A stretch of 43,894 nt of DNA from contig JBBQYF010000002.1 in the NCBI GenBank assembly GCA_038208955.1, positions 1-43,894 on the forward strand, read 5' to 3'. Positions 8,055-43,894 of the stretch are shown one piece after another. A model generated the notes under the pieces. It saw only the letters and a list, made by a program, of their open reading frames with translations, was not told the DNA's origin and searched no databases. Made by a program: the position numbers and the translations under genes. The stretch comes from Elusimicrobiota bacterium. GTDB lineage: Bacteria > Elusimicrobiota > Elusimicrobia > 2-01-FULL-59-12. Numbering within the stretch: position 1 is the stretch's first letter; every line of letters starts with the position of its first letter.

Positions 8055-8059
8055 AATCT

Positions 8060-24721: not shown

Positions 24722-24762
24722 CTGCCGAACTAGGATTCGAACCTAGACTAATGGATTCAGAG
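24722..24762 (-). other. tRNA-Gln(CUG)-like 3-prime half (anticodon loop to discriminator), putative att core of the adjacent element
   Basis: The minus strand reads ctCTGaa tccat tagt ctagg ttcgaat cctag ttcggca g. That is an anticodon loop with CUG, the 3-prime anticodon stem strand, a 4-nt variable loop, a perfect T-arm (5-bp stem, TTCGAAT loop), a 7-nt acceptor 3-prime strand and discriminator G. The implied U1:A72 plus G73 fit what I recall of bacterial tRNA-Gln. No matching 5-prime acceptor strand (tgccgaa), D-arm or good 5-prime anticodon stem strand lies upstream. That sequence is integrase coding DNA, with the stop TAG at 24745..24743 inside the T-stem. Confidence 0.6.
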
Positions 24763-26074
24763 TCTGTTGTGCCAGGGTCGATTTCTGCGAGTGACATATC
24801 GGTCTATTCTCTTGATAATCAATGCATTTGGCAATACCTTCGGAATTCGTGACGATTTCATTTGCTGACAATTTGCTGACAATTTTCCCCGAAAATTTAC
24901 CTTGCCGGCGATAGCCGCTTTCACAGAAATCGCACAAGCCGAGGGTGTTCATACGCGTTTCTGGCCGTACTCGATTGCAATTCGTGCAGGGAGAGGGTTC
25001 TTGCACTGATGGCCATTTGTAGAGATCTTGAAGGATTTTCCCCGCTTCCTGAAGGTCCTCATTCGCAGCCCCGACATATCTCTGCGTGGTATTTAGGTCG
25101 CCATGCCCCAGGTATTGCTGGACCGAGGCAATGTCCGTGCCATTTTTGAGCATCATCCGAGCCCCTGTCCGTCTCAAGTCACGGAATTGAAGATGAGACA
25201 TTCCAGCTCGCCGCCTCGCAGCCTTAAATTCCTTTTCGTGGTTCTTGAAATCCAAAATCTTGTCCCCGGGCGCAGTGTTGATAAGTTCCCACATGGCAGG
25301 CGTTATTGGAGGTGCGAATGGCCTACCGCTCTTTCGTTGCAAGCCGCTAAAAATGTTGTTCCCACGATCTATGTGTCTTGCCTTGCTCAGAGCTCTCAAA
25401 TCGCCGGGGCGAAGGATAGAATGAACTGCCGCCAGTAAACACCGCCGCAGACGGATGGTTGCGCACATCATAAAGGCCGAGAATTGGTCGGGCGTGAGAA
25501 CTACCTTGCGAACCAGGTCCTTCTCGCTTTCCCTTTCGATATATTTGCAGGGGTTTCGTCTTGGAAGGTTTACGCCAGCAAGGTCCGCAATCTCCCTGCG
25601 CTCTTGCCACTCATCCAGTTTTGTGAACAAGCCGCTTATTGTGGCGAGGTGACGATTGACCGTGCTTTTCTTGATACCGCGCTTTTGTAATATTGCTACG
25701 TGAGATTCGACGTCAAGAGTCGTTATTGTCTCGACGTGGCGGTGTGCTACGTGAGCCATGAACAGGTTCAGATGCCTTAGGTACCCGTTGGGATTGACTA
25801 GCTTCTTCAGGTGATTTTCCCAATAGATGTCACCGGCTCGCTCAATTACGATGGACCGCGCCAACACCTCTAGTCCGTGACGATCGCCGCGCCATTCCTT
25901 ACGTTTATTTTCACAAATCCGCTCGGCGTCCATGAAAACAGTCGGTTCATCCACCCTTCCGACTCTTGCGTAAAATTCGGGATGTTGGTTGTGACGTAGA
26001 CGCACTACAACGTAACGTCTCTTCTCAACGAATATTCCCGGCTTTAAGTTTTTAGGGATGTACGGCTGCGGCAT
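24743..26074 (-). CDS. Tyrosine recombinase/integrase with a 110-aa extension after the catalytic Tyr
   Basis: 443-aa ORF with SILRPGDLRAL (Arg I region), FRDLRRTGARMM (box II), and LGHGDLNTTQRY (His ... catalytic Tyr, codon 25078..25076). The extension contains CTNC-x17-CDFC. The last 6 codons (TLNPLV) overlap the tRNA-like fragment. Confidence 0.85.
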   Translation of the reverse strand: MPQPYIPKNLKPGIFVEKRRYVVVRLRHNQHPEFYARVGRVDEPTVFMDAERICENKRKEWRGDRHGLEVLARSIVIERAGDIYWENHLKKLVNPNGYLRHLNLFMAHVAHRHVETITTLDVESHVAILQKRGIKKSTVNRHLATISGLFTKLDEWQERREIADLAGVNLPRRNPCKYIERESEKDLVRKVVLTPDQFSAFMMCATIRLRRCLLAAVHSILRPGDLRALSKARHIDRGNNIFSGLQRKSGRPFAPPITPAMWELINTAPGDKILDFKNHEKEFKAARRRAGMSHLQFRDLRRTGARMMLKNGTDIASVQQYLGHGDLNTTQRYVGAANEDLQEAGKILQDLYKWPSVQEPSPCTNCNRVRPETRMNTLGLCDFCESGYRRQGKFSGKIVSKLSANEIVTNSEGIAKCIDYQENRPICHSQKSTLAQQTLNPLV

Positions 26075-27738: not shown

Positions 27739-29240
27739 AATATGTTCTCGAGCTCCTCCGCAGTAGGGAGAGGGATTTCGACATCCTTGATGGACTTACC
27801 AAACGCAAATTTTTTCGTCTTACCTTGCCCTTTTCCGCCAGGATCAGTCATCTCCAGGCATCCCAGGTCTAGGGCCTCGTTCGTGTACTTCCTGACGGTA
27901 TTACGATTCCATTTCAAAGCCCTTTCCAAATCAGCATAGGTAAGTTCAATATCGCCACTCTTTTCTGCCTCTTCCACCAACTGAACGCATTTAGGGGTCG
28001 CACCACGTAAAACCTGTCTAAGGATCGGAACTGCGAGCTCGCGTGCGAGCCGGTAATCATCCAGCGAAGCCTCAATGCAAGGCGAACCTTTGTAATCGCG
28101 CCTAGTCCGTTGGTATTGATGCAACAAAGCGGAGGCCTCGATTAGTGCCATAAACCGAGGCCGATCTCGCCTCACTCGTAAGGGTTTCGATGGGAAGGGA
28201 ATTTTCGCCGCGTAAGGAATTAAAACAGGCAACGTCTGTAAGAGCCTTTGGGCATTTTGCCATCGCATTAAAACGTATTGCCTTTCCTCGGTCGTCAATG
28301 GTTCCGTATAACGCTGATTTTGAGCCTGAAATATTCTTTCCGTTTGCCGTTCAGATTCGTCGATATAGATCTCAAAGTTTCGAGTTTCATTTTCTGCGTG
28401 CAGATGCGCCTCCGTCGTTGTCTCGATAAAGGCCGCGGGACCCTCCACCCGCTTTTCCACAGTTTCCATGCCACCGGTGTCACTTTTCTGAACAACCCAA
28501 AAGGAAATTTCCTTTTCACTTTGCATTGTCCGAATAGAGTAATCTCCCGCCTCTGATCCTGGTCGCTCGGCAATAAGAATCACTTTGTGTCGGAGGGACG
28601 TGGTGGTATGAAAAAGAGCGCGGGGAGATACCCCTGACAGCTTAATCACTGCTTCTGGCGGCAAGAAATCCAAGACAGACTCTGCTCGATGGTTTTTCCC
28701 ACCAGAGCTTTCACCCTTAATGGTCGTATTGATTGGAGAATCGGAAAGACGGGAGGTTCCAGCTAGGAGTAGGTAGAGTTTATTCGTATCCTCCCCTACG
28801 CTGCCAAGCCTCTCGATGTCAGTCATGAATTTTTCGAGCATTGCCGGATCGTAAAGCAGCTCTTCGGCTTTGCGCTTTTCATCTTCACTCATGGGTTTGA
28901 GAGTCGCTTTTTCCGTCTTAGATGCGTGGGTAGCCGAGGACAGCCGGATAAAATCATCCAGGTCAATCAGAGTCTGTTCTAATGGGAGGTGATACTCTTC
29001 GGGACATTGCCCTATAAAGCGTTTGCGTCCCGATGAGGACGCAAGAATCACGGTATCTCGCGCCGAGGGGACAACCCCATCTTTGAAATCGAGGCAAGCT
29101 GAAACACGCTTCTTATCAAACGAGTAACCTAGTGCGCGCAGGGTTCCGCTACGACCTACCGTGCACGTAATCTCGTTGCCCTCCTTAACGAATTGAGGGG
29201 ATGTAGTGTCTTGCGCTGTTGATGAGTTTTGCGAAGTCAT
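27735..29240 (-). CDS. P-loop NTPase, putative replicative helicase/initiator partner of the Toprim primase
   Basis: ~500-aa ORF with a Walker-A-like TTIKGESSGGKNH, a hydrophobic strand plus acidic residue (KVILIAERPGSE) and a downstream NETRNFEIYIDESE. The start is set at ATG 29240 (GGAGG, 8-nt spacer); the track start is 29276. The family was not recognised precisely. Confidence 0.55.
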   Translation of the reverse strand: MTSQNSSTAQDTTSPQFVKEGNEITCTVGRSGTLRALGYSFDKKRVSACLDFKDGVVPSARDTVILASSSGRKRFIGQCPEEYHLPLEQTLIDLDDFIRLSSATHASKTEKATLKPMSEDEKRKAEELLYDPAMLEKFMTDIERLGSVGEDTNKLYLLLAGTSRLSDSPINTTIKGESSGGKNHRAESVLDFLPPEAVIKLSGVSPRALFHTTTSLRHKVILIAERPGSEAGDYSIRTMQSEKEISFWVVQKSDTGGMETVEKRVEGPAAFIETTTEAHLHAENETRNFEIYIDESERQTERIFQAQNQRYTEPLTTEERQYVLMRWQNAQRLLQTLPVLIPYAAKIPFPSKPLRVRRDRPRFMALIEASALLHQYQRTRRDYKGSPCIEASLDDYRLARELAVPILRQVLRGATPKCVQLVEEAEKSGDIELTYADLERALKWNRNTVRKYTNEALDLGCLEMTDPGGKGQGKTKKFAFGKSIKDVEIPLPTAEELENIL

Positions 29241-29895
29241 GTCGTGTTCCTCCATCTCGAAAAAAATCTGATACATCTTTCTTGTCCGGTGTGCCTGGTA
29301 ATGGAAGGTCGATGATTCTTACTTCCTTCGCTACGGCAGAGAGGATTCGGGCTACCTTCGCCGCGCCTTTTCTCCCACTCAAATCGCGGTCGTAACAAAT
29401 CCAACATCGCTTCCCAGCGAAAAGCGCGGTCCATTCGTCCAACCAGGTCATCGACCCTGCTGTATGAGAAATTGCGTTATCGAAGCCTTGATCATGCGAC
29501 CGGAAGCAATCCCATTCGCCCTCATGGAGAATTACTTCAGGTTTGGAGCGGTCGCCAATCCATTGAGCACGGTATCCCGGGGGAGAGACGCTCCATCGGG
29601 TCTGCTTCGTCGGTTCCATATATCGGTAAACCCGGAGGATAGGTCCAGCGGGTATGATGATGCAGGGTTCCGAGCAAACGTACCCGCGCCGTCCCGATCC
29701 CAAGCGTTTGTCGTAGCGTTCCACAATTCCCTGCTGAACGTTAAACTTCGCCAAGGTGGTGAGCGCATACCCTTTATTGTTGGCTGCCATCCACTGCAAG
29801 GCGTGGAGTCCCAAGGCTTCCTGTTTGATCAGTTTGAAATAAATGGGTTGATCCTTCCGTAAGGTTTGTTTGTATTGCTGTGTAGTCAAGCTCAT
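29185..29895 (-). CDS. Toprim-domain DNA primase-like protein
   Basis: EVILHEGEWDCF (Toprim Glu) and WICYDRDLSGRKGA (DxD) with a C-terminal DVSDFFRDGGT. The start is set at ATG 29895, which overlaps the upstream TGA (ATGA); the track start is 30021. Confidence 0.7.
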   Translation of the reverse strand: MSLTTQQYKQTLRKDQPIYFKLIKQEALGLHALQWMAANNKGYALTTLAKFNVQQGIVERYDKRLGSGRRGYVCSEPCIIIPAGPILRVYRYMEPTKQTRWSVSPPGYRAQWIGDRSKPEVILHEGEWDCFRSHDQGFDNAISHTAGSMTWLDEWTALFAGKRCWICYDRDLSGRKGAAKVARILSAVAKEVRIIDLPLPGTPDKKDVSDFFRDGGTRHDFAKLINSARHYIPSIR

Positions 29896-30179
29896 TTGGA
29901 CTCCGATTTCCGTAGTGAGTTGCGAGCGCACCCGTCCCGTTCTGCTTGAAAGAGCCGGTCCTTCAGTTCTCTCATACTGTTGAAAAAGTCTTTGGCAGGC
30001 AACTTTAGCCCCGAGGACCAATAGTCTTGAACCATGCTTTCGCAGCGCAACTTATCTTCAAAAACAAAGTGCGCCTTTCCATCGCGCCAATCGAGACGAA
30101 CAAGACGCTGGCCAGCAGCTTTAAGCGCGGAGCCTATTTGAAGATTGCGGGTTTGAAATTCGGTAGGTTGGTTTTGCAT
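29892..30179 (-). CDS. Small phage-type protein (DUF5659-like by recollection)
   Basis: IGSALKAAGQRLVRLDWRDGKAHFVFEDKLRCESMVQDYWSSGLKLPAKDFFNSMRELKDRL resembles the pattern I recall for DUF5659 (A..L...G..l......g....F.F.d.......y......v.a..f......lK..i). It is the first gene of the coupled island operon. Confidence 0.4.
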   Translation of the reverse strand: MQNQPTEFQTRNLQIGSALKAAGQRLVRLDWRDGKAHFVFEDKLRCESMVQDYWSSGLKLPAKDFFNSMRELKDRLFQAERDGCARNSLRKSESK

Positions 30180-32983: not shown

Positions 32984-33159
32984 GGGGTGTTATTTATTTT
33001 CATTAAACAATAACATCTTGATAAACGCGGCATCTCGTCTTGTGTCGTCGGTAATTCTAAGCGCTTCGGACTAGGTCAAACGTGACATGTTTTGCCTCCT
33101 AAGGTTAGTAACAACAGATTTGTTATTCGCGTGATGGGCTGAGACTTAAAAGACATGCT

Positions 33160-33818
33160 CTAATGCGCTCCTTTTTTTCTTTCTTTCTCCGGAAAAACAT
33201 TGTGCGGCTCGATGTCGGTTCGTTCCCGCGCAATTCGCGCCAGCTCAATGGCGATCCGTTCCGGTGGGAGGACGTAATCGACTAGCCCCGTCGCCATCGC
33301 ATGCGCCGGCATAGATTCATCTTCGGCTGAGTAGGTGTCTTCCGCAAAGGTGATTCCCCCCGCCGTCTTGATCATATTCAGCGCGTGTGAGCCATCCCCG
33401 TCACCTCCCGACAAAATAACTGCGATGGCATTACAGCCTTGATCTGCGGCTAAGGAACGTAAGAAATAATCAATCGGCATGAATGGAGCCTTTGTGACTT
33501 TTCGCACGGCCAGTGTCAAAACGCCGCGTTGAATGCTCATGAGGGCATTGGAGGGCATGACGTACACATGGTTCGGTTCGATGGGTGTTTGATCCGTGAC
33601 TTCAGTGACGGGTAACTGGGTCCGGCGTGAGAGCAGGTCAGTCAGCAGGCTTTTATGGTCAGCGGCCAAATGTTGAATAGCTACAAAAGCCATTCCCGTA
33701 TCCACGGGCATAAACTGCAGAAGCTGCGTAAATGCTTTCAGTCCTCCGATGGAGGCACCTATGCCAACGATAGGAACGATTTATCTTGGAAGGATTTAGG
33801 GCGGAGAAGCTTTTTCAC
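33160..33818 (-). pseudogene. CheB-type methylesterase-domain paralog with a frameshift at about codon 15
   Basis: The track ORF 33160..33711 starts at MPVDTGMAFVAIQHL. The same frame continues upstream as IVPIVGIGASIGGLKAFTQLLQF (containing the GxSxG nucleophile motif) up to TAA 33783..33781, with no start codon. In the +1 frame, GTG 33818 gives VKKLLRPKSFQDKSF, which parallels KKLPP...SPNKSFPVVGVGASAGG of the 1308-aa protein. Confidence 0.6.
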
Positions 33819-33829
33819 GGTAAGCTCTT

Positions 33830-34138
33830 TCATTTATCAATCTGATGGGCGAGCCTAAAATCGAGATCCGTCAGGCCGCCTGATGAATGAGTTGAGAGAG
33901 TTAATTGGACTTTGTTGTATTGGATGGTTATATCAGGGTGATGATCCAGTTTTTGGGCGAGCGTCGCTACATGCTTCACAAACGCCATGGCTTTCACAAA
34001 GTCGGCAAAGCGGTATCGTCGGTTAATTTCTTTTCCCCTACGTTTCCAGCGAGGAATTTTCTTCATCCCTTTTTGAATATCTGCTGCACTGAGTTTTTGA
34101 TCGGGATGAACAGAACTTACATGGCTTCGGGTACTCAT
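33830..34138 (-). CDS. Pterin-4-alpha-carbinolamine dehydratase (PCD/DCoH family)
   Basis: 102-aa ORF with FADFVKAMAFVKHVATLAQKLDHHPDITIQYNKVQLTLSTHSSGGLT. The ATG overlaps the upstream TGA (ATGA). Confidence 0.8.
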   Translation of the reverse strand: MSTRSHVSSVHPDQKLSAADIQKGMKKIPRWKRRGKEINRRYRFADFVKAMAFVKHVATLAQKLDHHPDITIQYNKVQLTLSTHSSGGLTDLDFRLAHQIDK

Positions 34139-35733
34139 AAAAATTCCTCCTTACGGGAAATCGCGTCAGGCAACGCAGGTGTCCCTGCACCTTTTTTGTC
34201 TTGAAGGGATTCGAGATTGGAATTGGCTGGTCCATTCATGACTTTTCCCAGCGGATCAAATCGTGACCCGTGGGCAGGGCAGTCCCAGCTGTTTTCATCG
34301 GCGTTCCATCGGACTAAACCCCCGAGATGAGGGCACACGGCCGAACAGGCGTGAACGGTCCCTTGGGAATCGCGGTAGACCGCGATCTTCTTGACCCCCT
34401 CGCGCAATACTTCACCGCATCCCGGCTTTATGTCTTTCACCGCTTTAACACTGCCGGGCGTTAACCAATCCAAATACTGCGGAACCACGTTGAGAATACC
34501 TTTGATGAACTCTCCCGCGGCACTGATCGTCTTGCGTTTCGGATCGTAAAGCGATGCCCAGGCATTGGGCCGTCCTTGGATCAGATCCGTGATTAAAAGT
34601 CCGGCGATCGTTCCATGGGTCAAGCCGTTTCCGCAATCTCCAGTGGCAATATAAACATTCGAGTCATCTAAGGGATTTCTCCCAATAAAGGCCAGACCAT
34701 CTATGGTGTCGATGATTTGTCCTGACCAGCGGTATTCCACCTGTTTTAGGGTGGGGAATCGTTCTCGCGCCCAGGCTTCCAGTTCTCGATAGGGCGTTTC
34801 CGTATCGTCTTTCTGGCCCGTTCTGTGATCTTCGCCACCAATAATCAACATCTCATCAACCGACTCTCCTTCTGGCATTTCCAGACGTATATAATGATAA
34901 GGGTCCGGAGTATCCCAATAGAGGGCATGCGGCACCGCCCCCCGTGGAAGGGGGGCCGCGATCACGTAGCTGCGATAGGCAGCCTGCTTGGTATGCATGA
35001 CCACCCGATCATTAATGGGCACATTCGTGGCGATAACAATGTGTTTAGCCGTTACCTTATGGCCGCTCTTTGTCAAAGTCGCTAGTTCTTTACCCGATAG
35101 GATTTCAGTCACGTGCGTATGGGTAAAGATTCGCACCCCGCGTTCTGTCATTTTAGAGGCCAATGCGGATAAATATTTCAGGGGATGAAATTGTGCTTGG
35201 CGTGGAAATTGTAAGCAACGTCCCGTGTCATAGGATTTCCAAGGAGATTTTGGAGCCCACAATACAGGAATCCCTGCTCGTTGAGCCGCTTCAAATTCTT
35301 TTTCCAGCTCAGATTGATCGCTTTCAGGGGGGACAAACAGGTACCCCTCCACCCGTTCAAATTGGCACTCTATTTTTTCTTCGCTGACAATCCGCTCGAC
35401 TTCATTAATCGCGGCAGCGTGGCTCTCGGCCGCGAGTCGTGCCCCCTCTTTGCCATGCTTTTCCTCTAGGACATAATAGCGATCATCAAGGACGTTGGTG
35501 AGATGCGCGCTGGTACGCCCCGTTTCGCCGCTTCCTATTTCGCCATCCTCAACTAAGACGACAGAAAGACCTTCACGAGCGGCTAAGTAGGCCGTCGTAA
35601 GTCCTGCGATACCCGCCCCGACAACACACACATCACATGAAACATTATCGGTTAAGCTCGGATAAGAAGGCCGTTTTACCTCTTGCAGCCAAATGGACTG
35701 CGCATTCCCAGAAGATCTATCTGGAGAAGTCAT
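34135..35733 (-). CDS. FAD-dependent oxidoreductase (DAO-like) fused to a C-terminal Rieske [2Fe-2S] domain
   Basis: CDVCVVGAGIAGLTTAY dinucleotide fold at the N-terminus. The C-terminus has CPHLGG...CPAHGSRF (CxH ... CxxH). Confidence 0.8.
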   Translation of the reverse strand: MTSPDRSSGNAQSIWLQEVKRPSYPSLTDNVSCDVCVVGAGIAGLTTAYLAAREGLSVVLVEDGEIGSGETGRTSAHLTNVLDDRYYVLEEKHGKEGARLAAESHAAAINEVERIVSEEKIECQFERVEGYLFVPPESDQSELEKEFEAAQRAGIPVLWAPKSPWKSYDTGRCLQFPRQAQFHPLKYLSALASKMTERGVRIFTHTHVTEILSGKELATLTKSGHKVTAKHIVIATNVPINDRVVMHTKQAAYRSYVIAAPLPRGAVPHALYWDTPDPYHYIRLEMPEGESVDEMLIIGGEDHRTGQKDDTETPYRELEAWARERFPTLKQVEYRWSGQIIDTIDGLAFIGRNPLDDSNVYIATGDCGNGLTHGTIAGLLITDLIQGRPNAWASLYDPKRKTISAAGEFIKGILNVVPQYLDWLTPGSVKAVKDIKPGCGEVLREGVKKIAVYRDSQGTVHACSAVCPHLGGLVRWNADENSWDCPAHGSRFDPLGKVMNGPANSNLESLQDKKGAGTPALPDAISRKEEFL

Positions 35734-35789
35734 GAAAGTTCAACACTCGAAGGATGCAGCAAAGCTCTGGCTTTAAGGATGTCGTTCAT
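35730..35789 (-). CDS. 19-codon upstream ORF translationally coupled to the FAD/Rieske gene
   Basis: AAGGAG, a 5-nt spacer, then ATG 35789: MNDILKARALLHPSSVELS. Its TGA overlaps the ATG of the 532-aa gene (tcATGA), and that gene has no RBS of its own. It is too short for the ORF track. Confidence 0.35.
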   Translation of the reverse strand: MNDILKARALLHPSSVELS

Positions 35790-35818
35790 AGAATCTCCTT
35801 GGGTTTATAAGACAAAAT

Positions 35819-35944
35819 TTACAGTTTTCCCAGCACCATCAGAATCACCAGGACCAATAGGATGGTTCCCAACCCTCCGCTTGGATAATATCCCCAGCCC
35901 GAGCTATAGGGCCAAGCTCCGTTAGCCGCGCGGCTTTGTGGCAA
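35819..35944 (-). CDS. Small membrane peptide resembling the C-terminal half of DUF3309 proteins (41 codons from TTG)
   Basis: Hand translation gives ...NGAWPYSSGWGYYPSGGLGTILLVLVILMVLGKL*. I recall DUF3309 peptides as two helices joined by P.WPYSR.WGY.PSGGLG..L.I.LI.LL.GRI. The only possible start is TTG 35944, and no RBS is present. The frame opens inside the 3-prime end of the CheB-like gene, and the first helix is missing. Confidence 0.3.
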   Translation of the reverse strand: MPQSRAANGAWPYSSGWGYYPSGGLGTILLVLVILMVLGKL

Positions 35945-36548
35945 GGAGTTTTCTTTTTGAGGAGACCAATCTTTTTAGTTCATCGGGAATTTTTTCAGGG
36001 GGCATGACGAAATCAACATAACCTGAAGCCTGAGCACCAAGAGGCATGTCGGTTACTTCGGCAGACTGGTCCTGAGCAAAGGTTGTTCCTCTCTTTGCCT
36101 TGATGCGCTTGCATCCCTCAGTCCCGTCGCCATCATACCCAGAGAGGACAATGCCGATCGCACGAGCCCCCATCGCCTCGGCTAAAGAAATCAAAAACAA
36201 ATTGATCTGCTTCTTGCTACTCGTGCGCGGGGAGACGACTTTGAAGGTATAGCCCTCGATGAGAAGATCCGCGTTCGGGGGGATCACGTAGACGCGATTC
36301 CTCTGGGCCTGCATCCCATCCGTAGCCACCCGGACTGGCATTTTCGTGTGACGCGACAGAATGTGAGCTAACTGACTACTGGCGGTGGGATTCATATGAG
36401 AAATAATGACAAAGGCCATGCCTGTATTAGAAGGCAGGGCGTCCAAGAGCGCCTTGTAGGCGTTAAGAGCTCCGGCTGAGCCCCCGATGCCGACAATGAA
36501 AGCAGGACGCAATGTGTCCATGATCTCCGTTACCCCCCCCAGCTTCAA
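35922..36548 (-). CDS. Stand-alone CheB-type methylesterase domain (no receiver domain)
   Basis: IVGIGGSAGALNAYKALL (GxSxG Ser), FVIISHM (His) and VLSGYDGDGTEG (Asp) match the CheB catalytic-domain triad motifs. TTG 36548 overlaps the kaiC-like TGA. An alternative ATG lies at 36521. Confidence 0.8.
   Translation of the reverse strand: MKLGGVTEIMDTLRPAFIVGIGGSAGALNAYKALLDALPSNTGMAFVIISHMNPTASSQLAHILSRHTKMPVRVATDGMQAQRNRVYVIPPNADLLIEGYTFKVVSPRTSSKKQINLFLISLAEAMGARAIGIVLSGYDGDGTEGCKRIKAKRGTTFAQDQSAEVTDMPLGAQASGYVDFVMPPEKIPDELKRLVSSKRKLLATKPRG
36533..36540 (-). repeat. G8 homopolymer (C8 on the plus strand) at the kaiC-like / CheB-like junction
   Basis: Read directly: ttaccccccccagc. It lies in codons 3-6 if TTG 36548 is the start, or in the RBS region if ATG 36521 is the start. 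Confidence 0.9.
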
Positions 36549-38044
36549 TTCGTATCCTTTATATCAACCTTCTTTTTAGGACTAGGGCCTACGGCAGGAT
36601 CCATCGGTGCTAACTTAATTCCATCATCACTCAAAATCAATTTGTGGACGTCACTGTCGTGGCCCGTGCCACGAGACTTCACAATGAAAAGTCCACGAAT
36701 GCGTTTTTTACTCGTACCTTCTTCTAATTCTCTCACGATGATCCACGTGTCGATTAAAGACGAAACGCCGATTTCGCCGCTCGTGTCATTTGCTGAGGCT
36801 GCAGAAACAAGACTGGTGAAAAACGTCGTGATGCCACTGGATTTCAGCAGATCAATCATGCGCGTAATCATCGATCGAATTTCACGCTCGTCCCCCTCTC
36901 CAATAAGACTGGTCAGGGGATCGATGACCACCGATTTGGGTTTGAAACTTCCAACGAGCTTATACAAATCGAGTAAATGCATCTCTAAACCAAAAAAGGA
37001 AGGTCTCACAGACACAATCTTTAAGAGTCCTTTTTTGATCCATGGCGCAAAATCAATACCGATAGAACTCATGTTTTGAATGAGTTGCCCGGAAGATTCT
37101 TCATAAGACAAGAAAATACACCGCTCTCCACGTTTACAGCTTCCTATTGCGAATGCACCTGCGAGACTTGTTTTTCCTGTGCCTGCCGTGCCCGAAGCCA
37201 GTACCGTGCTGCCTCGGGTATATCCTGGTTTACCCCAGAACAGTTTGTCGAGCGATGGAATTCCTGTTGACACTTTCTGCGCTGTGCCGGGCTGATCAAG
37301 CCCTGCGGAGGTAATCGGAATAACGGAAAGTCCTTCTTGATCAATGACGAAGGGATATTCGTTGGCTCCATGATTGGAACCCCGATATTTAAGGACGCGA
37401 ATTCTACGGACAGCAATTTGTTCTTTAACTCTGTTATCCAACAGAATGATGCAATCGGAAATGTACTCCTCCAAGCCATGACGCGTATAAGAGCCTCGTC
37501 CCGGCTCGCCGGTCACGATAGACGTCACTTGTTTGTCTTTAAGCCACCGAAAAAGTCTTTTACTTTCTAAGCGATGAATGCCGGTATCGGTGATGCCTGC
37601 AAAGAGAGATTCAATAGAATCTAAAACAACGCGTTTGGCGCCAATGGAATCAATGGCATGTTCCAAACGAACGAGTATTCCCTCAAGATTAAAGTCGGTC
37701 TCTTGAACGTCTTTGCGCTCCAGAATAACATGTTCAACCAGAATTTTCTTTCGTGAAACATGCCCTGATAAATCCAGGTTGATAGAAGCCACGTCTTTAT
37801 AAAGTTCATCGGGTGTCTCTTCAAAGGACATTAAGACACCTGGCTCGTTATAATCGGTCGCGCCCTTGATTAGAAAATCTATCCCCAAAAGGGTTTTCCC
37901 TGAGCCCGCACCTCCGGAAATTAAAGTGGTTCTATTTTTCGGGAACCCACCTTCGGTAACCTCGTCTAGGCCTTTGATGCCGGTGGGGCACTTGTCTAAT
38001 GGTTTACGTTTAAGGGAGATTTTTGTCTTTAGAATTTTAGGCAT
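36545..38044 (-). CDS. KaiC-like double RecA-superfamily ATPase
   Basis: 499-aa ORF with two homologous halves.
- Half 1: TGIKGLDEVTEGGFP, Walker A LISGGAGSGKT, SFEET.
- Half 2: TGIPSLDKLF, Walker A LASGTAGTGKT, SYEES, and VSSLIDTWII...FIVKSRGTGHD.
A GAGGA RBS lies 7 nt upstream. Confidence 0.85.
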   Translation of the reverse strand: MPKILKTKISLKRKPLDKCPTGIKGLDEVTEGGFPKNRTTLISGGAGSGKTLLGIDFLIKGATDYNEPGVLMSFEETPDELYKDVASINLDLSGHVSRKKILVEHVILERKDVQETDFNLEGILVRLEHAIDSIGAKRVVLDSIESLFAGITDTGIHRLESKRLFRWLKDKQVTSIVTGEPGRGSYTRHGLEEYISDCIILLDNRVKEQIAVRRIRVLKYRGSNHGANEYPFVIDQEGLSVIPITSAGLDQPGTAQKVSTGIPSLDKLFWGKPGYTRGSTVLASGTAGTGKTSLAGAFAIGSCKRGERCIFLSYEESSGQLIQNMSSIGIDFAPWIKKGLLKIVSVRPSFFGLEMHLLDLYKLVGSFKPKSVVIDPLTSLIGEGDEREIRSMITRMIDLLKSSGITTFFTSLVSAASANDTSGEIGVSSLIDTWIIVRELEEGTSKKRIRGLFIVKSRGTGHDSDVHKLILSDDGIKLAPMDPAVGPSPKKKVDIKDTN

Positions 38045-38071
38045 AGTGTGATCCTCGTTTGCTGTGAATGA

Positions 38072-39859
38072 CTAGACATGTGGAGCTTGCTTGGCGGCAT
38101 CTAAGACTTCCCGCACTTTATGACACAGGCCCTCTGGACTAAATGTTTTCTCAATAAAGTTGATCGTGGGATCGACGCCCCCTCGTTCGGCAATGAGTTC
38201 TTGATTGTAGCCCGACATATAGAGAACGGCCATGTTCGGGCGTTTGGGGACGACCAGCTTGGCCAACTCATTTCCGTTCATGCCCGGCATAATAACGTCC
38301 GTCAACAAAAGATCGATGGGCCCTTCATGCTTGTCGCAGATGTCGATCGCGGCTTGCCCGCTGCGTGCATGAAGGACGGTGTACCCTTTCTTACGCAACG
38401 CCCGGACCACCACTCTGCGGACGATGTCTTCGTCTTCAGTGACGAGAATAGTCTCCGAACCTCCCCCGGCTTCTCGGCGCTCGAAACGCCGGCGTTCGGG
38501 ATCAGGCGATTGTTCCACACGAGGAAAATAAATACGAAAGGTCGTTCCCTTCCCCGGCGCGCTCTCCACCACAATATCGCCGTTCGCCTTCTTGACAATG
38601 CCATAGACATTCGCCAGCCCTAGGCCGGTTCCCTTTTCCCCTTTCGTCGAAAAGAAAGGTTCAAACATGTGTTTGAGAGTTTCTTGCGACATCCCGCTGC
38701 CACTATCGGAGACCGTCACGACCACATAAGGGCCAGGCTTCACGTCGAAAAGCCCCTTCAAATGCCCCTCTTCCAAATCCATATTTGAAGTCTGCAGGGT
38801 AAGCTTGCCGCCGGTCAGCATCGCATCGCGGGCATTGAGTCCGAGATTAAGAACCACTTGTTCCAAATTCCCCGGATCCATATGCACCGATCCTAATTGA
38901 GGATCTAGCACCGTGGTCATTTCGATGTCTTCCCCCAGGAGCCGTCTAAAGAGACCGTCCATAGCACTAATAACCTCATTGAGGTTCAGAACTCGGGGAT
39001 TCACCACTTGCCGCCGGCCAAACGCTAAAAGCTGTTTCGTGATGACCGCGGCTTTCCGTGCCGCGCCAATAATTTGATCCATATCCTCGACATCCGCACT
39101 GGCCGGCATGAGCCTTTTTTGAAGGTCCTCCGCAATCCCCAAAATCCCCGTCATCAAATTATTAAAGTCATGCGCCACGCCGCCCGCCAAGCGTCCAATG
39201 GCTTCCAACTTTTCCGCCTGATGCAGCGCCTGTTGCATGTGGACGAGCTCTTCGGTTCTCTGTTTGACCCGCCCCTCAAGCTCGGCCGCCCACACCGCCG
39301 CTACGGCTTCACGCTCTTCATGGAGCAGCTTGATACGGTCTTCGGCTTGCTTGGAAGCCGTTAAGTCCCGAATCAATTTCGCGTATCCACGCAGCTGCTT
39401 CTCTTTCTCAAAGAGAAAGAGCGGCCGCATATAGCCCGTCGCCCAGAACCGGGTCCCGTCTTTGCGCATATGCCAACGGTCATCCGTCGCGCGGCCGATC
39501 GTTTGCGAGAGCTCCATTTCCTGCTCCGGAATCTTAGCGGCAATGTCTTCCGGGCTAAAGATGCGATGCACTTTCTGACCCAAGATCTCTTTTTCACTAA
39601 AGCCTAAAATTTGTTCTGCCCCCGCACTCCAGCCGGTGATCGTCCCATGCACGTCGAGGAGCATGAGCGCATAATCCTTAATGCTTTCTAAGACAAACCC
39701 CAGCCGTTCTTGCGCATCGCAAAGGTCTTCTCTCAGACGAATGGGGTCGGCTTGTTCCATCTCCGGGCGGGATTTAATCGGCGCATCATTCCCCGGGAGC
39801 GTGGGAGCCTCCGGGGCTACGGGAGTCGGCGAAGGGACTTTCGAGGAATGATCAGACAT
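38072..39859 (-). CDS. Hybrid sensor kinase: PAS - HisKA - HATPase_c - receiver
   Basis: PAS (GTITGWSAGAEQILGFSEKEILG...RKDGTRFWA), H-box LAGGVAHDFNNLMTGILG, N/G boxes (LNLGLNARDAM, DSGSGM, GTGLGLA) and REC (ILVTEDED...LLLTDVIMPGMNG). The start is set at ATG 39859, which overlaps the upstream stop by 8 nt; the track start is 39907. Confidence 0.85.
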   Translation of the reverse strand: MSDHSSKVPSPTPVAPEAPTLPGNDAPIKSRPEMEQADPIRLREDLCDAQERLGFVLESIKDYALMLLDVHGTITGWSAGAEQILGFSEKEILGQKVHRIFSPEDIAAKIPEQEMELSQTIGRATDDRWHMRKDGTRFWATGYMRPLFLFEKEKQLRGYAKLIRDLTASKQAEDRIKLLHEEREAVAAVWAAELEGRVKQRTEELVHMQQALHQAEKLEAIGRLAGGVAHDFNNLMTGILGIAEDLQKRLMPASADVEDMDQIIGAARKAAVITKQLLAFGRRQVVNPRVLNLNEVISAMDGLFRRLLGEDIEMTTVLDPQLGSVHMDPGNLEQVVLNLGLNARDAMLTGGKLTLQTSNMDLEEGHLKGLFDVKPGPYVVVTVSDSGSGMSQETLKHMFEPFFSTKGEKGTGLGLANVYGIVKKANGDIVVESAPGKGTTFRIYFPRVEQSPDPERRRFERREAGGGSETILVTEDEDIVRRVVVRALRKKGYTVLHARSGQAAIDICDKHEGPIDLLLTDVIMPGMNGNELAKLVVPKRPNMAVLYMSGYNQELIAERGGVDPTINFIEKTFSPEGLCHKVREVLDAAKQAPHV

Positions 39860-42800
39860 GTGGAGGCCTCCCTGACTCGCTTGACGAGGAAGCTTGCTTC
39901 GCACCATCTAAGACTTCCCGCACTTTATGGCAGAGGCCCTCACCGGTAAATGTTTTCTCAATAAAGTTTGTGCCAGGCTCTAGGACGCCGCGCTGACTGA
40001 TGATCTCCTGGTTATAGCCGGACATATAAAGAACGGACATGCCCGGTCGTTTGGACGCGATCGTCTTGGCCAACTCGCTTCCGTTCATGCCCGGCATAAT
40101 AACGTCCGTCAACAGAAGATCGATGGGCCCCTCATGCTTGCCGCTGATGTCGATCGCGACTTGCCCGTTGCGTGCATGAAGGACGGTGTATCCTCTCTTG
40201 CGCAAGGCTTTGACGACCACTTTTCGAGCGATGTCTTCGTCTTCGGTCAGGAGAATCGTCTCAGAACCTCCTCGCGCGTCCCGGCGATCCGCATTTCGTC
40301 GGTCGGCATTGGGAGATGCCTCCACACGAGGAAAGTAAATTCGGAAGGTCGTACCCTTTCCCAGGTCGCTCTTCACCCGAATGTCGCCACCCGCTTGCTT
40401 CACGATACCGTAGACGTTGGCGAGGCCTAGGCCCGCGCCCTTTCCCCCTTTCGTCGTAAAGAAAGGGTCAAACATGTGATCCAGGATTTCGGGAGCCATC
40501 CCGCACCCGGTATCCGATACTGTTAGGACGACGTAGGGGCCGGGCTTCGCGGCAAAATTCCCTATGACGTGATTTTCATCTAAGTTCACATTCGCCGTTT
40601 CCAGGGTGAGCTTGCCGCCGGCGAGCATCGCATCGCGGGCATTGAGTCCGAGATTGAGAATCACCTGTTCCAAATTTCCGGGATCGATGTGCATCGACCC
40701 TAGTTGGGGATCTAACACCGTTTTCACGTCGATGTCTTCCCCCAAAAGCCGTCGAAAAAGTCCGTCCATCGTGGCAATGATTTCATTGAGATTGAGAACC
40801 TGGGGATTGATGACTTGCCGCCGGCCAAACGCCAAAAGCTGTTTGGTAATGACCGTTGCTTTTCGGGCCGCGCTGATAATATGTTCCAAATCCGCTCGGT
40901 GCGGACTTCCCGGGCCCAACTCCGCGTGGAGATCGTCTGTAATTCCCAAAATCCCGGTCATCAAATTATTAAAGTCATGCGCCACGCCGCCCGCTAAGCG
41001 ACCGATGGCTTCCAGTTTTTCCGCCTGATGCAACGCATTTTGCGACCGGACGAGCTCTTCGGTCCGTTGTTTCACCTGCGTTTCCAGCTCCGTCGCCCAG
41101 ACCACCGCGGCGGCCTGGCGCTCTTTGGCCAGCTGAATGTCCGAAAAAGATAAAACGACCCCGTCGATCTTGTCATCCAAGGTTTTGTAGGGCTGAGCCC
41201 GCAAGTTATACCAATGGCCTTCCCGGTCCTGGATCTCACGCTGCTCAATGACGAGGGTGCCCAGGACAGACGTAATCAGCGGCCTTAAATCAGGGGGAGA
41301 GAGGGCGAGGTTTAATTCGTGAATGGATTTACCGATATCGACGTGTGCAATGTGTAGCAGCTTTTCAGCGGCCGGCGTAAGCCGCCGGATATGCTGGTCT
41401 TTCCCGAGGATGACGATCGGGACATTGGCCCCGCCCATCAAATTCACCAAATCGTCGTTCAGATGGGTCAGTTCCACATTGCGACTATTCAACTCTTCGT
41501 TCAGCGTGGTGGTTTCTTCGTTGGTGGATTGCAGCTCTTCCTTTGCGGTTTGCAATTCCTCGTTGGCGCTTTGGAACTCTTCATTGGTCGATAGAGCTTC
41601 CTCGTTCGCCGATTTCAGTTCATCATTCACGCTTTCCTGATCGTTAATCGTCGACTGGAGATAATTCTTGGTCGCGGTCAGCTCTTTTTTAAGGCGGATA
41701 TTTTCCAGTTCGGCGATCTGGCAAGCGGTCTTGTAATCGCGAGGGTTGCCGGCGCTCTGTCCGCGACGCGCCCTCTTGCTCTCGGGGGGATCGCTCGGGA
41801 GCGCCTCTTCAAACAAGACCAGAAAGTGCGCCTCGCGGGTAGGGACCTGGGTCAGAGGAACGACTTCTATCGTCACGTTTCTAAAATGGCCGCCCCGTCT
41901 GATCCGAGAGCCTTCCGCTCGGACGGGATGATTCTCCTTCTTGGCTTTATGAATGGCCGGGCGCAGCTCGAGTAGTAGTCCTTCTTTGGCCAGTTTTAAG
42001 AGATTCAGGCTCGCCGTGCCGGCGACATGTTCCAAGTACTGATTGACGGGGCCGCGGAACTCCACAATCTTCATGGACCCGTCAATGATGACGCCCGCGA
42101 GGGCCCGTTTCTCGAGCACATATTGATCAGCCTCTTGGTGCATGGTCGGGGGGCTCTTGACTTCGTTCGGCCTCTTCGGCATTTCAGGCGGTGTTCGCAA
42201 GGTCGGATAGTCCGCGTGACTGAATACGGGATGCTGCCCGACCGCGACGTTTTTCTTCGCATAAATCTTCACCTTTTTATCGAGTGGACTAAAAAGAGTC
42301 GAAAAAGCACCCAAGGCTTCGGAATTTCCCAACAGCAAGATCCCGGTCGACTTGAGAGAATAATTGAAAACGGCCATCACCTGTTTTTGCAGCACGGGAC
42401 CTAAATAAATCAGGACGTTGCGACACGAGATTAAATCCAATTTGGAGAAGGGAGGATCTTTAGCGACATTCTGCTTCGCGAAGATGCAAACATCTTTGAC
42501 GGATTTATTAATTTGATATCCGCCGGAGACCGCGGTGAAGAATCGGCGCCGACGTTCTGCCGAGACCCGTGCCACCGCGGCTTCCGTGTAAAGCCCCGTC
42601 CGGGCTCGCTGGAGGGGTCGATCTCCAATATCGGTACCAAACACCTGGATCGGAACTCTTTGATCGCCGAGAAATTCCAGTAAGCAGATAACCACCGAAT
42701 AGACTTCTTCGCCCGTGGCACATCCCGGCACCCAGATACGGATCGGTTCACTCACCGCTCTATTCTTCATCAAGCGCGGAAATACATTGGTCTTTAGCGT

Positions 42801-43742
42801 CTCGAAGGTCTCCGGATCACGGAAGAATTCGGTCACATGAATCAAAATATCATCGTAGAGAAACCCAATTTCTTCCGACTCGGCTTTGAGAATCTTGACG
42901 TACTCTTTGAGCGAGGTGACCCTTTGAACCACCATCCGCCGGGTGATTCGGCGCTTAAGGGTGGCTTGCTTATAATGGGTGAAATCGACGCCTCGGGCCC
43001 GGTGTAAAAGAGAATAAATCGTTGCAAGCCCATCGTCCTCTGGCAATAATTCCTCGCCGGAAACCTTTCGTAGCCGGTCAGCGGTGGGATCGCGCGCAAT
43101 GCGCACCAGTTCTTTCGCGATTCCTGCAGGAGGAAGAACGAAATCGACGAGCCCCGTCGCCATCGCGGTCGCCGGCATGGACCCGGTCTTGGCCGAAGCA
43201 TCTTGGGCAAAGGTGATTCCCCCTTCCGCTTTAATCGCCTCAAGCGCGTGAGAGCCGTCGCCGTCACCCCCGGAAAGAATGACCGCAATCGCCTCACTGC
43301 CTTTATCCGCGGCCAGCGACCGCAAGAAATAATCTATCGGCATGAAAGGACTACCGGCCTCTTTTCGTCCGGTCAGCGTCAAGACGCCCCTGTGAATACT
43401 CATCTGGGTGTTAGGCGGGATGACGTACACGTGGTTGGGTTCGACAGGCGTCTTATCGATTGCTTCCGTGACGGGTAACTTCGTCTGTCGCGAGAGAATG
43501 TCCGCGAGCAGGCTTTTATGGTCCGCGGATAAGTGTTGGATCAAGATAAACGCCATTCCCGTATCGATGGGCAAAGCGGTTAGGAGCTGTGTAAAAGCTT
43601 CCAGTCCTCCAGCCGATGCGCCGACGCCAACAACTGGAAAGGATTTATTCGGAGATTGAGAGGGTTGGATGGAAAGGATTGGGGGAAGCTTTTTAGCCGT
43701 CACAGATCGCCCCTGAGAACTGCCACCGTTACGGGAAGTCAT
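39852..43742 (-). CDS. CheB methylesterase - CheR methyltransferase - PAS - coiled coil - PAS - HisKA - HATPase_c - receiver fusion protein
   Basis: Domain order read from the translation:
- CheB domain: VGVGASAGGLEAF, ILIQHL, LSGGDGDGS.
- CheR: THYKQATLKRRITRRM, IWVPGCATGEEVYS, ISCRNVLIY.
- PAS-like region, NEEL heptad coiled coil, second PAS.
- Kinase and REC: AHDFNNLM H-box, HATPase boxes, REC (LLLTDVIMPGMNG).
The start is set at ATG 43742 (GGGGG RBS); the track TTG is at 43778. Confidence 0.85.
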   Translation of the reverse strand: MTSRNGGSSQGRSVTAKKLPPILSIQPSQSPNKSFPVVGVGASAGGLEAFTQLLTALPIDTGMAFILIQHLSADHKSLLADILSRQTKLPVTEAIDKTPVEPNHVYVIPPNTQMSIHRGVLTLTGRKEAGSPFMPIDYFLRSLAADKGSEAIAVILSGGDGDGSHALEAIKAEGGITFAQDASAKTGSMPATAMATGLVDFVLPPAGIAKELVRIARDPTADRLRKVSGEELLPEDDGLATIYSLLHRARGVDFTHYKQATLKRRITRRMVVQRVTSLKEYVKILKAESEEIGFLYDDILIHVTEFFRDPETFETLKTNVFPRLMKNRAVSEPIRIWVPGCATGEEVYSVVICLLEFLGDQRVPIQVFGTDIGDRPLQRARTGLYTEAAVARVSAERRRRFFTAVSGGYQINKSVKDVCIFAKQNVAKDPPFSKLDLISCRNVLIYLGPVLQKQVMAVFNYSLKSTGILLLGNSEALGAFSTLFSPLDKKVKIYAKKNVAVGQHPVFSHADYPTLRTPPEMPKRPNEVKSPPTMHQEADQYVLEKRALAGVIIDGSMKIVEFRGPVNQYLEHVAGTASLNLLKLAKEGLLLELRPAIHKAKKENHPVRAEGSRIRRGGHFRNVTIEVVPLTQVPTREAHFLVLFEEALPSDPPESKRARRGQSAGNPRDYKTACQIAELENIRLKKELTATKNYLQSTINDQESVNDELKSANEEALSTNEEFQSANEELQTAKEELQSTNEETTTLNEELNSRNVELTHLNDDLVNLMGGANVPIVILGKDQHIRRLTPAAEKLLHIAHVDIGKSIHELNLALSPPDLRPLITSVLGTLVIEQREIQDREGHWYNLRAQPYKTLDDKIDGVVLSFSDIQLAKERQAAAVVWATELETQVKQRTEELVRSQNALHQAEKLEAIGRLAGGVAHDFNNLMTGILGITDDLHAELGPGSPHRADLEHIISAARKATVITKQLLAFGRRQVINPQVLNLNEIIATMDGLFRRLLGEDIDVKTVLDPQLGSMHIDPGNLEQVILNLGLNARDAMLAGGKLTLETANVNLDENHVIGNFAAKPGPYVVLTVSDTGCGMAPEILDHMFDPFFTTKGGKGAGLGLANVYGIVKQAGGDIRVKSDLGKGTTFRIYFPRVEASPNADRRNADRRDARGGSETILLTEDEDIARKVVVKALRKRGYTVLHARNGQVAIDISGKHEGPIDLLLTDVIMPGMNGSELAKTIASKRPGMSVLYMSGYNQEIISQRGVLEPGTNFIEKTFTGEGLCHKVREVLDGAKQASSSSESGRPPHV
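41445..41640 (-). repeat. 21-bp (heptad) periodic coding repeat: [S/T]xNEE[L/F]Q coiled coil
   Basis: It encodes NDELKSANEEALSTNEEFQSANEELQTAKEELQSTNEETTTLNEELNSRNVELTHLNDDL. The DNA shows recurring ctcttc/ctcctc-gtt units every 21 nt. Confidence 0.7.
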
Positions 43743-43894
43743 AATGCCCCCTTCTGGTGGATCTGGAACTGAGAGCAATGGAGCTGGTAAAAGAGTCCAT
43801 CGACGCGACTAGTCACGGTGACTTCCCTTTCAGATACTAATTCAAAAGTAGTCTGCGACGGCCCCAAGGCGCTCCTGGTGGATGCCAAACCCCG
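43739..43894 (-). CDS. 3-prime end of an upstream gene, coupled to the CheB-CheR fusion gene (partial, unknown function)
   Basis: The minus-strand frame is open from the window edge for 51 codons (...EREVTVTSRVDGLFYQLHCSQFQIHQKGAL). It ends at TGA 43741..43739, overlapping ATG 43742 (ATGA). It is too short to identify. Confidence 0.3.
   Translation of the reverse strand, partial: RGLASTRSALGPSQTTFELVSEREVTVTSRVDGLFYQLHCSQFQIHQKGAL

Follow-up and report, generated by a model that had tools for sequence, protein, structure and literature searches.

Gene content of the operon

The DNA analyzed here, which we call the window, is a stretch of 43,894 nucleotides from an Elusimicrobiota bacterium (contig JBBQYF010000002.1), and its far end carries an operon in which a kaiC-like gene is followed by a gene for a CheB-like protein that has no receiver (REC) domain (the solo CheB). 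The open reading frame (ORF) list of the window gives four complete minus-strand genes and one partial gene, tightly packed over positions 35922-43894 (Table 1). An earlier note on this DNA, made from the sequence alone, had described five packed genes in this order, and the ORF list, the Pfam domains and a check of the junctions bore it out. The ATG of the CheB-CheR fusion kinase at 43742 overlaps the TGA of the partial ORF (an ATGA junction), the ATG of the second kinase at 39859 overlaps the stop codon upstream of it by 8 nt and lies in the context GGGAGG-N7-ATG, and kaiC is preceded by a 27-nt gap bearing GAGGA; all three junctions stand as the note had read them. One start codon came out differently: the note began the cheB-like gene at TTG 36548, overlapping the kaiC stop, whereas homologues point to ATG 36521 (MDTLRPAFIVGIGG). 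Because the N-termini of these homologues fit the pattern M-x-x-L-R-P-x-F-I-V-G-I-G-G, the start is most likely this ATG, 23 nt past the kaiC stop. The order HK-REC, PAS-HK-REC, kaiC, cheB (HK, histidine kinase) was also found on an identical 5,954-bp contig (L006).

We scanned with Pfam all window ORFs of at least 150 aa, minus six that lie inside or overlap longer annotated ORFs. KaiC, CheB, CheR, PAS, HisKA, HATPase_c and REC, the families that the note had recognized by eye, were all recovered. Among the ORFs scanned there was no kaiA, kaiB, methyl-accepting chemotaxis protein (MCP), cheA, cheW or DNA-binding response regulator, again as the note had it. A promoter and terminator scan of positions 33000-43894 gave counts no higher than those in shuffled sequence.

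The KaiC-like protein matches PF06745 in two stretches (E 2e-107) and passes NCBIfam model NF006799 (590.8 bits, cut-off 408); it does not reach the cyanobacterial KaiC equivalog TIGR02655 (286.8 bits versus a cut-off of 546.25). Its best match among solved structures is the KaiC of Rhodobacter sphaeroides (KaiC_RS; 8DB3/8DBA, E 2e-141), to which it is ~46% identical by tblastn, with residues 16-481 aligned. Both Walker A loops (GGAGSGKT, aa 44-51; GTAGTGKT, aa 285-292), both paired catalytic glutamate motifs (SFEET, aa 73-77; SYEES, aa 313-317) and the Ser-Ser pair are present where the note had placed them. Over 80 KaiCs of the cassette described below, the core residues of the Walker A and glutamate motifs fall in columns at least 95% conserved, as does GVSSLIDTW around Ser428/Ser429. 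The note had placed this serine pair at S431/T432 of Synechococcus elongatus KaiC, to which it probably corresponds. Its reading of the pair as KaiC phosphosites gains from an alignment in which Ser428 and Ser429 fall on S413 and S414 of KaiC_RS (GLSSLMDGW). These are the sites of the phosphomimetic S413E/S414E and of alanine mutants of KaiC_RS, and the study that made them (Nature 2023, PMC10076222) counts them with the kaiC2 subgroup, whose phosphosites are two serines.

The protein has no long C-terminal coiled coil (499 aa versus 568 aa in KaiC_RS), and beyond the end of the alignment at residue 481 it carries an 18-aa basic tail. In cassette KaiCs the end of the protein is a basic, partly conserved tail that reads roughly PMD-(8-12 residues)-QKKKVGKN-SE-QK, of which the window tail (36548-36601) is a shortened version, PKKKVDIKDTN. 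By analogy with the C-terminal tethers of receptors for CheR and CheB, this tail may be a docking peptide. The KaiC-like protein is predicted to be a KaiB-less ATPase and autokinase of the Ser-Ser type.

Table 1. Features of the operon and of a related gene nearby, in window coordinates
Feature	Position	Strand	Remarks
REC-less cheB-like gene	35922..36521	(-)	199 aa from ATG 36521; 208 aa from TTG 36548; cassette gene 2
kaiC-like gene	36545..38044	(-)	499 aa; predicted double RecA-type ATPase/autokinase, Ser-Ser (KaiC2-like) type; cassette gene 1
Ser428-Ser429 codons, predicted autophosphorylation pair	36758..36763	(-)	alignment to KaiC_RS
PAS-HisKA-HATPase_c-REC hybrid histidine kinase	38072..39907	(-)	611-aa ORF; likely start ATG 39859; Pfam
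CheB-CheR-coiled coil-PAS_10-HisKA-HATPase_c-REC fusion kinase	39852..43778	(-)	1308-aa ORF; likely start ATG 43742; Pfam
Fusion-kinase domains	CheB 43107-43631; CheR_N + CheR 42273-43025; PAS_10 41133-41447; HisKA + HATPase_c 40326-41003; REC 39921-40256	(-)	Pfam
Tandem heptad array in fusion-kinase coiled coil	41460..41606	(-)	aa 725-773; candidate methyl-accepting segment
Upstream partial ORF, 3' end, cut by window edge	43739..43894	(-)	TGA 43741-43739; no Pfam family
Third CheB-domain gene, disrupted or recoded at A-run	33160..33817	(-)	PF01339 E 3e-41, from profile position 20

The kaiC-cheB cassette across phyla

We searched the window KaiC protein against one genome per species, which returned 80 loci at 70-85% identity, and as a reverse test scanned metagenomes with the CheB-like protein, counting loci with at least 300 bp upstream. 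A solo CheB gene lay downstream of kaiC, on the same strand and 0-300 nt away, in every kaiC-seeded locus that extends ~200 bp or more past kaiC (81 of the 85 loci), and kaiC stood immediately upstream of cheB in 67 of the 69 cheB-seeded loci. When 4,208 ORFs, drawn from 163 loci, were clustered all against all, two families alone proved universal, kaiC and cheB (144 and 143 loci). Further small ORFs that recurred were antisense shadows within these two genes, and the next real families were CheB/CheR kinases (13 loci), CheB-Crp fusions (7), a short-chain dehydrogenase (7) and single receivers (6 and 5). What is conserved is thus the pair of kaiC and REC-less cheB and not the operon as a whole, and the association is near-obligate both ways; the pair very probably forms one functional unit. 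The wider linkage of kaiC, CheB and CheR in the earlier note held in part: its kaiC and REC-less cheB are conserved elsewhere, whereas the CheB/CheR-HK fusion is accessory, adjoining the cassette in 19/146 loci, or in 5/26 of those flanked on each side by 5 kb or more (13-19%).

By their taxon labels, cassette hosts belong to Bacteroidota, Bdellovibrionota, Acidobacteriota, Verrucomicrobiota, Planctomycetota, Nitrospirota, Gemmatimonadota, Myxococcota, Fibrobacterota and Pseudomonadota, with a melainabacterium and others, and include a cultured carrier, Mucilaginibacter aurantiaciroseus RB4R14 (L027). Judging by their names, many carrier bins come from cold or high-latitude sites (ant_bin, MDV, Chersky, palsa/bog/fen, GL_UP, Erken), which may reflect enrichment or database bias.

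We then looked for the usual companions of both proteins in 168 sources (1.65 Mb of cassette flanks), using queries validated against the PDB. KaiB gave no match by phmmer, and a positive control (L168) gave two; CheW was found in none of the sources and MCP in one. Among the nearest plasmid-borne kaiC relatives (52% identity; L168), kaiB follows kaiC in the position that cheB holds in the cassette. Together with the scan of the window, these counts support the note in tying the KaiC-like protein to enzymes of the CheB/CheR type in a setting that has neither chemoreceptors nor CheA/CheW or KaiA/KaiB. They also bear on the suggestion that the operon is ordinary chemotaxis adaptation, with CheB and CheR acting for chemoreceptors whose genes lie elsewhere and kaiC next to them by chance. 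The catalytic motifs are indeed those of CheB and CheR, but linkage in ~150 independent contexts already contradicts a chance neighbour, and CheW and MCP are all but missing from the flanks. Moreover, the solo CheB has no REC domain and scores 106 and 96 bits with NCBIfam CheB models whose cut-offs are 342 and 293. Hosts include Flavobacterium, Mucilaginibacter and Chitinophagaceae, groups that to our knowledge usually carry no chemotaxis genes. We regard this suggestion as extremely improbable.

The composition of kaiC sets it apart. The window gene has 45.5% GC and a third-position GC (GC3) of 44%, compared with 53-55% and 60-62% in its neighbours, and every 1500-bp tile taken across the window is richer in GC (mean 53.2%, standard deviation 2.9), which confirms the dip over 36545-38044 that the note had estimated by hand. 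This dip is a family-wide property of kaiC: GC is lower than in the flanks in 66/93 loci (mean -0.059, p = 7e-9), GC3 is below that of cheB in 80/93, and kaiC GC rises by only 0.41 for each unit of host GC over hosts spanning 32-73% GC. Across hosts cheB is also lower in GC than its flanks, less strongly than kaiC. The note had read the composition as a sign that kaiC was acquired separately, which the dip does not show: low GC is found throughout the family, and both genes have unsaturated synonymous sites, which points to the pair moving together.

The four-fold degenerate sites of the window kaiC agree with their counterparts in 111 other cassettes at an average of 54% (maximum 72%), where composition predicts 26%. 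The window cheB reaches 50% against 26% expected, and random locus pairs give 45% for kaiC and cheB alike. Because the signal is even along kaiC, a local RNA element is unlikely; Rfam gave no match in the window or in five loci. As a control, the CheB/CheR kinase genes adjacent to cassettes proved saturated (0.23-0.37 versus 0.23-0.33 expected). Since synonymous sites are unsaturated in kaiC and cheB and saturated in the neighbouring kinases, we conclude that the pair has moved between phyla recently and that the CheB/CheR kinases are old residents. Such recent transfer also explains the family-wide low GC. By a Jukes-Cantor estimate dS for the cassette is ~0.35-0.9, and dN/dS is roughly 0.15-0.3. 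Extreme purifying selection, which had been considered as the cause of the ~80% inter-phylum protein identity, was dropped after the synonymous-site analysis, recency explaining most of it.

Cassette-type copies were not found on plasmids or phages, where the best plasmid matches were 52% identical kaiC-kaiB clusters, and the clustering of the 163 loci showed no recurrent mobility gene flanking the cassette. A tRNA scan found no tRNA in the window, and there is no obvious integration site. What look like remnants of mobile elements lie in the window at distances of 1.5-20 kb to the operon, namely a DDE transposase (11833-13266), a phage-type integrase (24743-26074) and, among unannotated neighbours, a Toprim-like gene (29185-30021). 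One might read the cassette as a selfish or defence-type mobile module that has nothing to do with cellular signalling and lies next to kinases here incidentally, given its recent inter-phylum spread, its low GC relative to hosts and the integrases, AbiE or toxin-antitoxin genes near some loci. No phage or plasmid copy and no recurrent flanking mobility gene was found, however, and PADLOC returned only P-loop-level matches for KaiC (mad8, 28.8 bits) and none for the solo CheB; repeated association or fusion with signalling proteins and the low dN/dS argue further against this reading, which we consider very unlikely.

Many cassettes (L009, L100, L104, L142, L153, L026, L089 and others) are preceded by a conserved AT-rich stretch of ~170-250 bp that contains a TATAAT-like box and an AAGGA ribosome-binding site. 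It is conserved between different hosts, looks like a promoter with its ribosome-binding site, and is absent in the window.

The CheB-like partner, its fusions and a heptad array

The solo CheB matches PF01339 (CheB_methylest) alone, over the full profile (E 8e-50), and gives no Response_reg match over its 199-208 aa. Its Ser-His-Asp triad is in register with that of Thermotoga maritima CheB (3SFT). In the locus sequences Ser is kept in 64/64, His in 60/64 and Asp in 62/64; in metagenome relatives none of the three is ever lost (119/119 each), and the solo forms have also kept GGSAG and GxDG. The CheB domains have the serine motifs GASAGG and GGSAG, and GCATGEE of CheR, which the note had quoted, is retained. 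With 47% identity to the CheB domain found in the fusion kinase, and a match to chemotaxis CheB at E 2e-19, the solo CheB is closer to the kinase-type domain than to chemotaxis CheB. JGI labels its relatives "two-component system CheB/CheR fusion protein", a label that presumably corresponds to KEGG K13924 and whose architecture is exactly that of the 1308-aa kinase.

The CheB domain linked to kaiC in Acidobacteriota forms one protein with a Crp-type regulator (cNMP_binding-HTH_Crp_2; L023 11537-12754, L034, L060, L166, L167). This family of fusions is large, with the architecture in 120/120 best matches, and its members also sit right after kaiC. They keep Ser in 118/120 and Asp in 114/120, and the catalytic His in only 56/120, with a replacement in the other 64. 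In one such locus (L166) a degenerate 181-aa CheB lies between kaiC and the fusion. A different fusion follows kaiC directly in an Anaeromyxobacteraceae bin (L078, 9540-13061), where a cassette-type CheB is N-terminal to CheB, CheR_N-CheR, a heptad coil and PAS, and this ties the cassette CheB to the fusion kinases. Considered together, the Crp and kinase fusions suggest that the constant job of the CheB-like domain is coupling to KaiC, that catalysis matters in the free form, and that the outputs are exchangeable.

The same fusions fit a CheB-like protein that is mainly a KaiB-like reader of state, which would bind one state of KaiC, feed back on its ATPase or phosphorylation and pass the state to outputs, hydrolysis being secondary or directed at a small molecule. 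Its gene occupies the kaiB position in a set of 168 sources that have no KaiB, the domain is joined to outputs as different as a Crp regulator and a CheB-CheR-PAS kinase, and 64 of the 120 fused forms have lost the His. We nevertheless consider this unlikely: the solo forms keep the triad without exception together with GGSAG and GxDG, which points to selection on catalysis, and the CheB-like fold is unrelated to KaiB.

All domains of the fusion kinase exceed their Pfam cut-offs except HisKA, which is weak (24.3 bits versus 26.9), and the catalytic motifs GASAGG and GCATGEE lie at aa 53 and aa 352. Between CheR and PAS_10 we found a run of heptads, NEEALST NEEFQSA NEELQTA KEELQST NEETTTL NEELNSR NVELTHL, that contains four matches to [EQ][EQ]xx[AST][AST] at an exact 7-residue spacing. 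The pattern resembles the classical methylation consensus of chemotaxis receptors, Glu-Glu-X-X-Ala-Ser/Thr. There were no matches to the pattern in the KaiC-like protein, the solo CheB or the second kinase. All 15 related cassette-adjacent fusion kinases carry 2-6 EE heptads, the heptad columns are conserved in the alignment of the 15 sequences, and the density of 2.65 per 1000 aa in fusion kinases is ~190-fold that in ~4,190 control ORFs (0.014). The array is a candidate for a methyl-accepting segment built into the kinase. The note had described a methylation pair with no chemoreceptor substrate; that the operon lacks an MCP holds, but that it lacks a substrate is probably wrong, given the heptads of the window kinase and its 15 relatives.

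The heptads also bear on the proposal that KaiC itself is the substrate, whereby the CheB-like enzyme would deamidate or demethylate Gln or Glu residues of KaiC, CheR would methylate them where present, and a covalent layer would be laid over the phospho-cycle. This would account for the strict adjacency of the two genes, for the majority of cassettes, which have no other conserved neighbour, and for the His-less Crp-fused domains, as former enzymes that keep KaiC binding. KaiC, however, offers no site of the kind that the fusion kinase has four of in tandem, one-way deamidation alone would be possible where CheR is absent, and no conserved KaiC residue is lost alongside the CheB His. We give this proposal a low probability; the presence of EE heptads in the fusion kinase, and in none of KaiC, the solo CheB and the second kinase, favours the kinase as the methylation target.

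Elsewhere in the window we found a third CheB-domain gene that the note had missed, parted from the operon by two unrelated genes. An in-frame TAA stands immediately before IVPIVGIGASIGG, and the N-terminus (GTG..KKLLRPKSFQDK) is in another frame at an AAA run, which could mean that the assembly is wrong by one base, that the gene is a frameshifted pseudogene or that it is recoded. The repaired protein shares 72% of its residues with the fusion kinase's CheB domain, of which it is a paralogue, and 44% with the solo CheB. On the plus strand, positions 5071-9484 carry a haem-synthesis cluster with a fused HemD-HemE (HEM4 + URO-D in one 648-aa ORF) followed by a ferrochelatase and a protoporphyrinogen-oxidase-like flavoprotein; a weak PorV-like protein is also encoded in the window and makes the Elusimicrobiota label, which contig L006 bears as well, an uncertain one.

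Proposed coupling of KaiC to glutamate methylation

As the best explanation of the region, plausible although short of probable as a whole mechanism, we propose a signalling operon around a horizontally mobile two-gene cassette that lies behind two resident hybrid histidine kinases. A KaiC hexamer would hydrolyse ATP and autophosphorylate on Ser428/Ser429, its state reflecting energy, temperature or elapsed time. This state would govern whether the CheB-like esterase binds or how active it is, and KaiC would stand in for the phosphorylated REC domain of canonical CheB. Working against the CheR domain of the fusion kinase and alongside its CheB domain, the esterase would help to set the methylation of the EE-x-x-S/T-A/T heptads in the kinase coiled coil, and the level of methylation would tune kinase output to the fused REC domains. 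With no fusion kinase at hand, a CheB-like domain fused to a Crp-type regulator would read KaiC directly, catalysis being dispensable, and the Crp fusions would form a short-cut from KaiC to transcription. In its most far-reaching form the proposal is that a slow KaiC ATPase/autokinase controls a glutamate methylesterase, so that a timer or energy sensor would write a methylation memory on the coiled coil of a receptor-less CheB/CheR kinase or on KaiC; this self-contained circuit would then be a new class of KaiC partner that replaces KaiB and has recently spread to at least a dozen phyla by horizontal transfer. We put this far-reaching form forward tentatively, as a possibility that is less likely than not.

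Several observations weigh against the proposed coupling. For about 80% of cassettes the available DNA contains no gene with a CheR domain, and for these the proposed substrate would be encoded elsewhere or nonexistent. Physical contact between KaiC and the CheB-like protein, the direction of control and the identity of the substrate are all inferred. Residues of KaiC that are lost together with the catalytic His of CheB are only conservative lineage markers. Covariation between KaiC and CheB (mutual information with average product correction, APC, over 113 pairs) gave scattered top pairs, at 0.28 versus 0.66 within proteins, and revealed no interface. Neither analysis separates the proposed coupling from its rivals. 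The heptads are putative methylation sites by consensus, and taxon labels come mostly from metagenome bins.

The cassette resembles several known systems in part. With the KaiBC hourglass of Rhodobacter (Cereibacter) sphaeroides (8DBA/8FWJ, PMC10076222) it shares the double KaiC domain, the Ser-Ser pair and the lack of KaiA, whereas the kaiB of that system has no match near the cassette, whose kaiC is followed by a CheB-type hydrolase gene. KaiC_RS has a coiled-coil extension of ~50 aa, which permits autophosphorylation without KaiA (PMC10076222), where the cassette KaiC has a short basic tail instead. The analogy that the note had drawn to the KaiC-SasA/CikA output of Synechococcus elongatus, which leads to RpaA, is plausible: here too a KaiC-type protein goes with histidine kinases and, in the Acidobacteriota variant, with a transcription factor. 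The cyanobacterial system couples through a KaiB/thioredoxin-like domain, but the cassette would do so through a CheB-like one, to kinases that are here hybrids with CheB/CheR domains; moreover, cassette KaiC falls below the cyanobacterial TIGR02655 cut-off, and no rhythm is known for the cassette. The chemotaxis CheR/CheB-MCP system shares with the operon the Ser-His-Asp triad and the GCATGEE S-adenosylmethionine (SAM) motif, whereas the operon has no MCP, CheA or CheW, its solo CheB has no REC domain, and its candidate methyl-accepting segment lies inside the CheB/CheR kinase.

Precedents for KaiC without KaiB are the kaiC-kinase pairs described in Ramlibacter tataouinensis (PMC3164672) and in Pseudomonas (bioRxiv 10.1101/2022.01.26.477890), non-cyanobacterial KaiCs without KaiA or KaiB in kinase/receiver operons, for which stress or hourglass roles have been proposed. 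Their kaiC contexts contain Nt_HK, REC or CsrA-type neighbours, but no CheB. The Ramlibacter genome paper distinguishes kaiC genes linked to kaiB, those linked to Nt_HK and a third, diverse group and leaves CheB unmentioned, and the phosphosites of its kaiC-Nt_HK group, SY/TY/SF, differ from the Ser-Ser of the cassette (PMC3164672); the Pseudomonas study reports HK, REC and CsrA neighbours of kaiC (bioRxiv 10.1101/2022.01.26.477890). An existing functional description of the module, which the note would have counted against its reading, was not found: full-text searches, which covered few subscription papers, returned no description of the kaiC-cheB pairing and no functional study of the CheB/CheR fusion kinase architecture, its KaiC link or its heptad array. 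Within the limits of the literature searched, the pairing, the fusions, the mobility and the heptad array are undescribed.

These findings bear on the roles and partners of KaiC homologues outside cyanobacteria. So far such homologues are known to occur with KaiB, SasA-like kinases and receivers, and a CheB-type partner that is nearly obligate adds a new class to these companions. The cassette would join two classic post-translational systems, the KaiC phospho-cycle and the methylation adaptation of CheR and CheB, and for the CheB/CheR fusion kinases, widespread but unstudied, there is now a candidate for a methyl-accepting segment within the protein itself. It is unusual for regulatory genes to have moved between phyla so recently that their synonymous sites are still unsaturated. 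Furthermore, with two small soluble proteins, defined phosphosites, four candidate glutamate pairs and a cultured carrier, the system is a tractable one.

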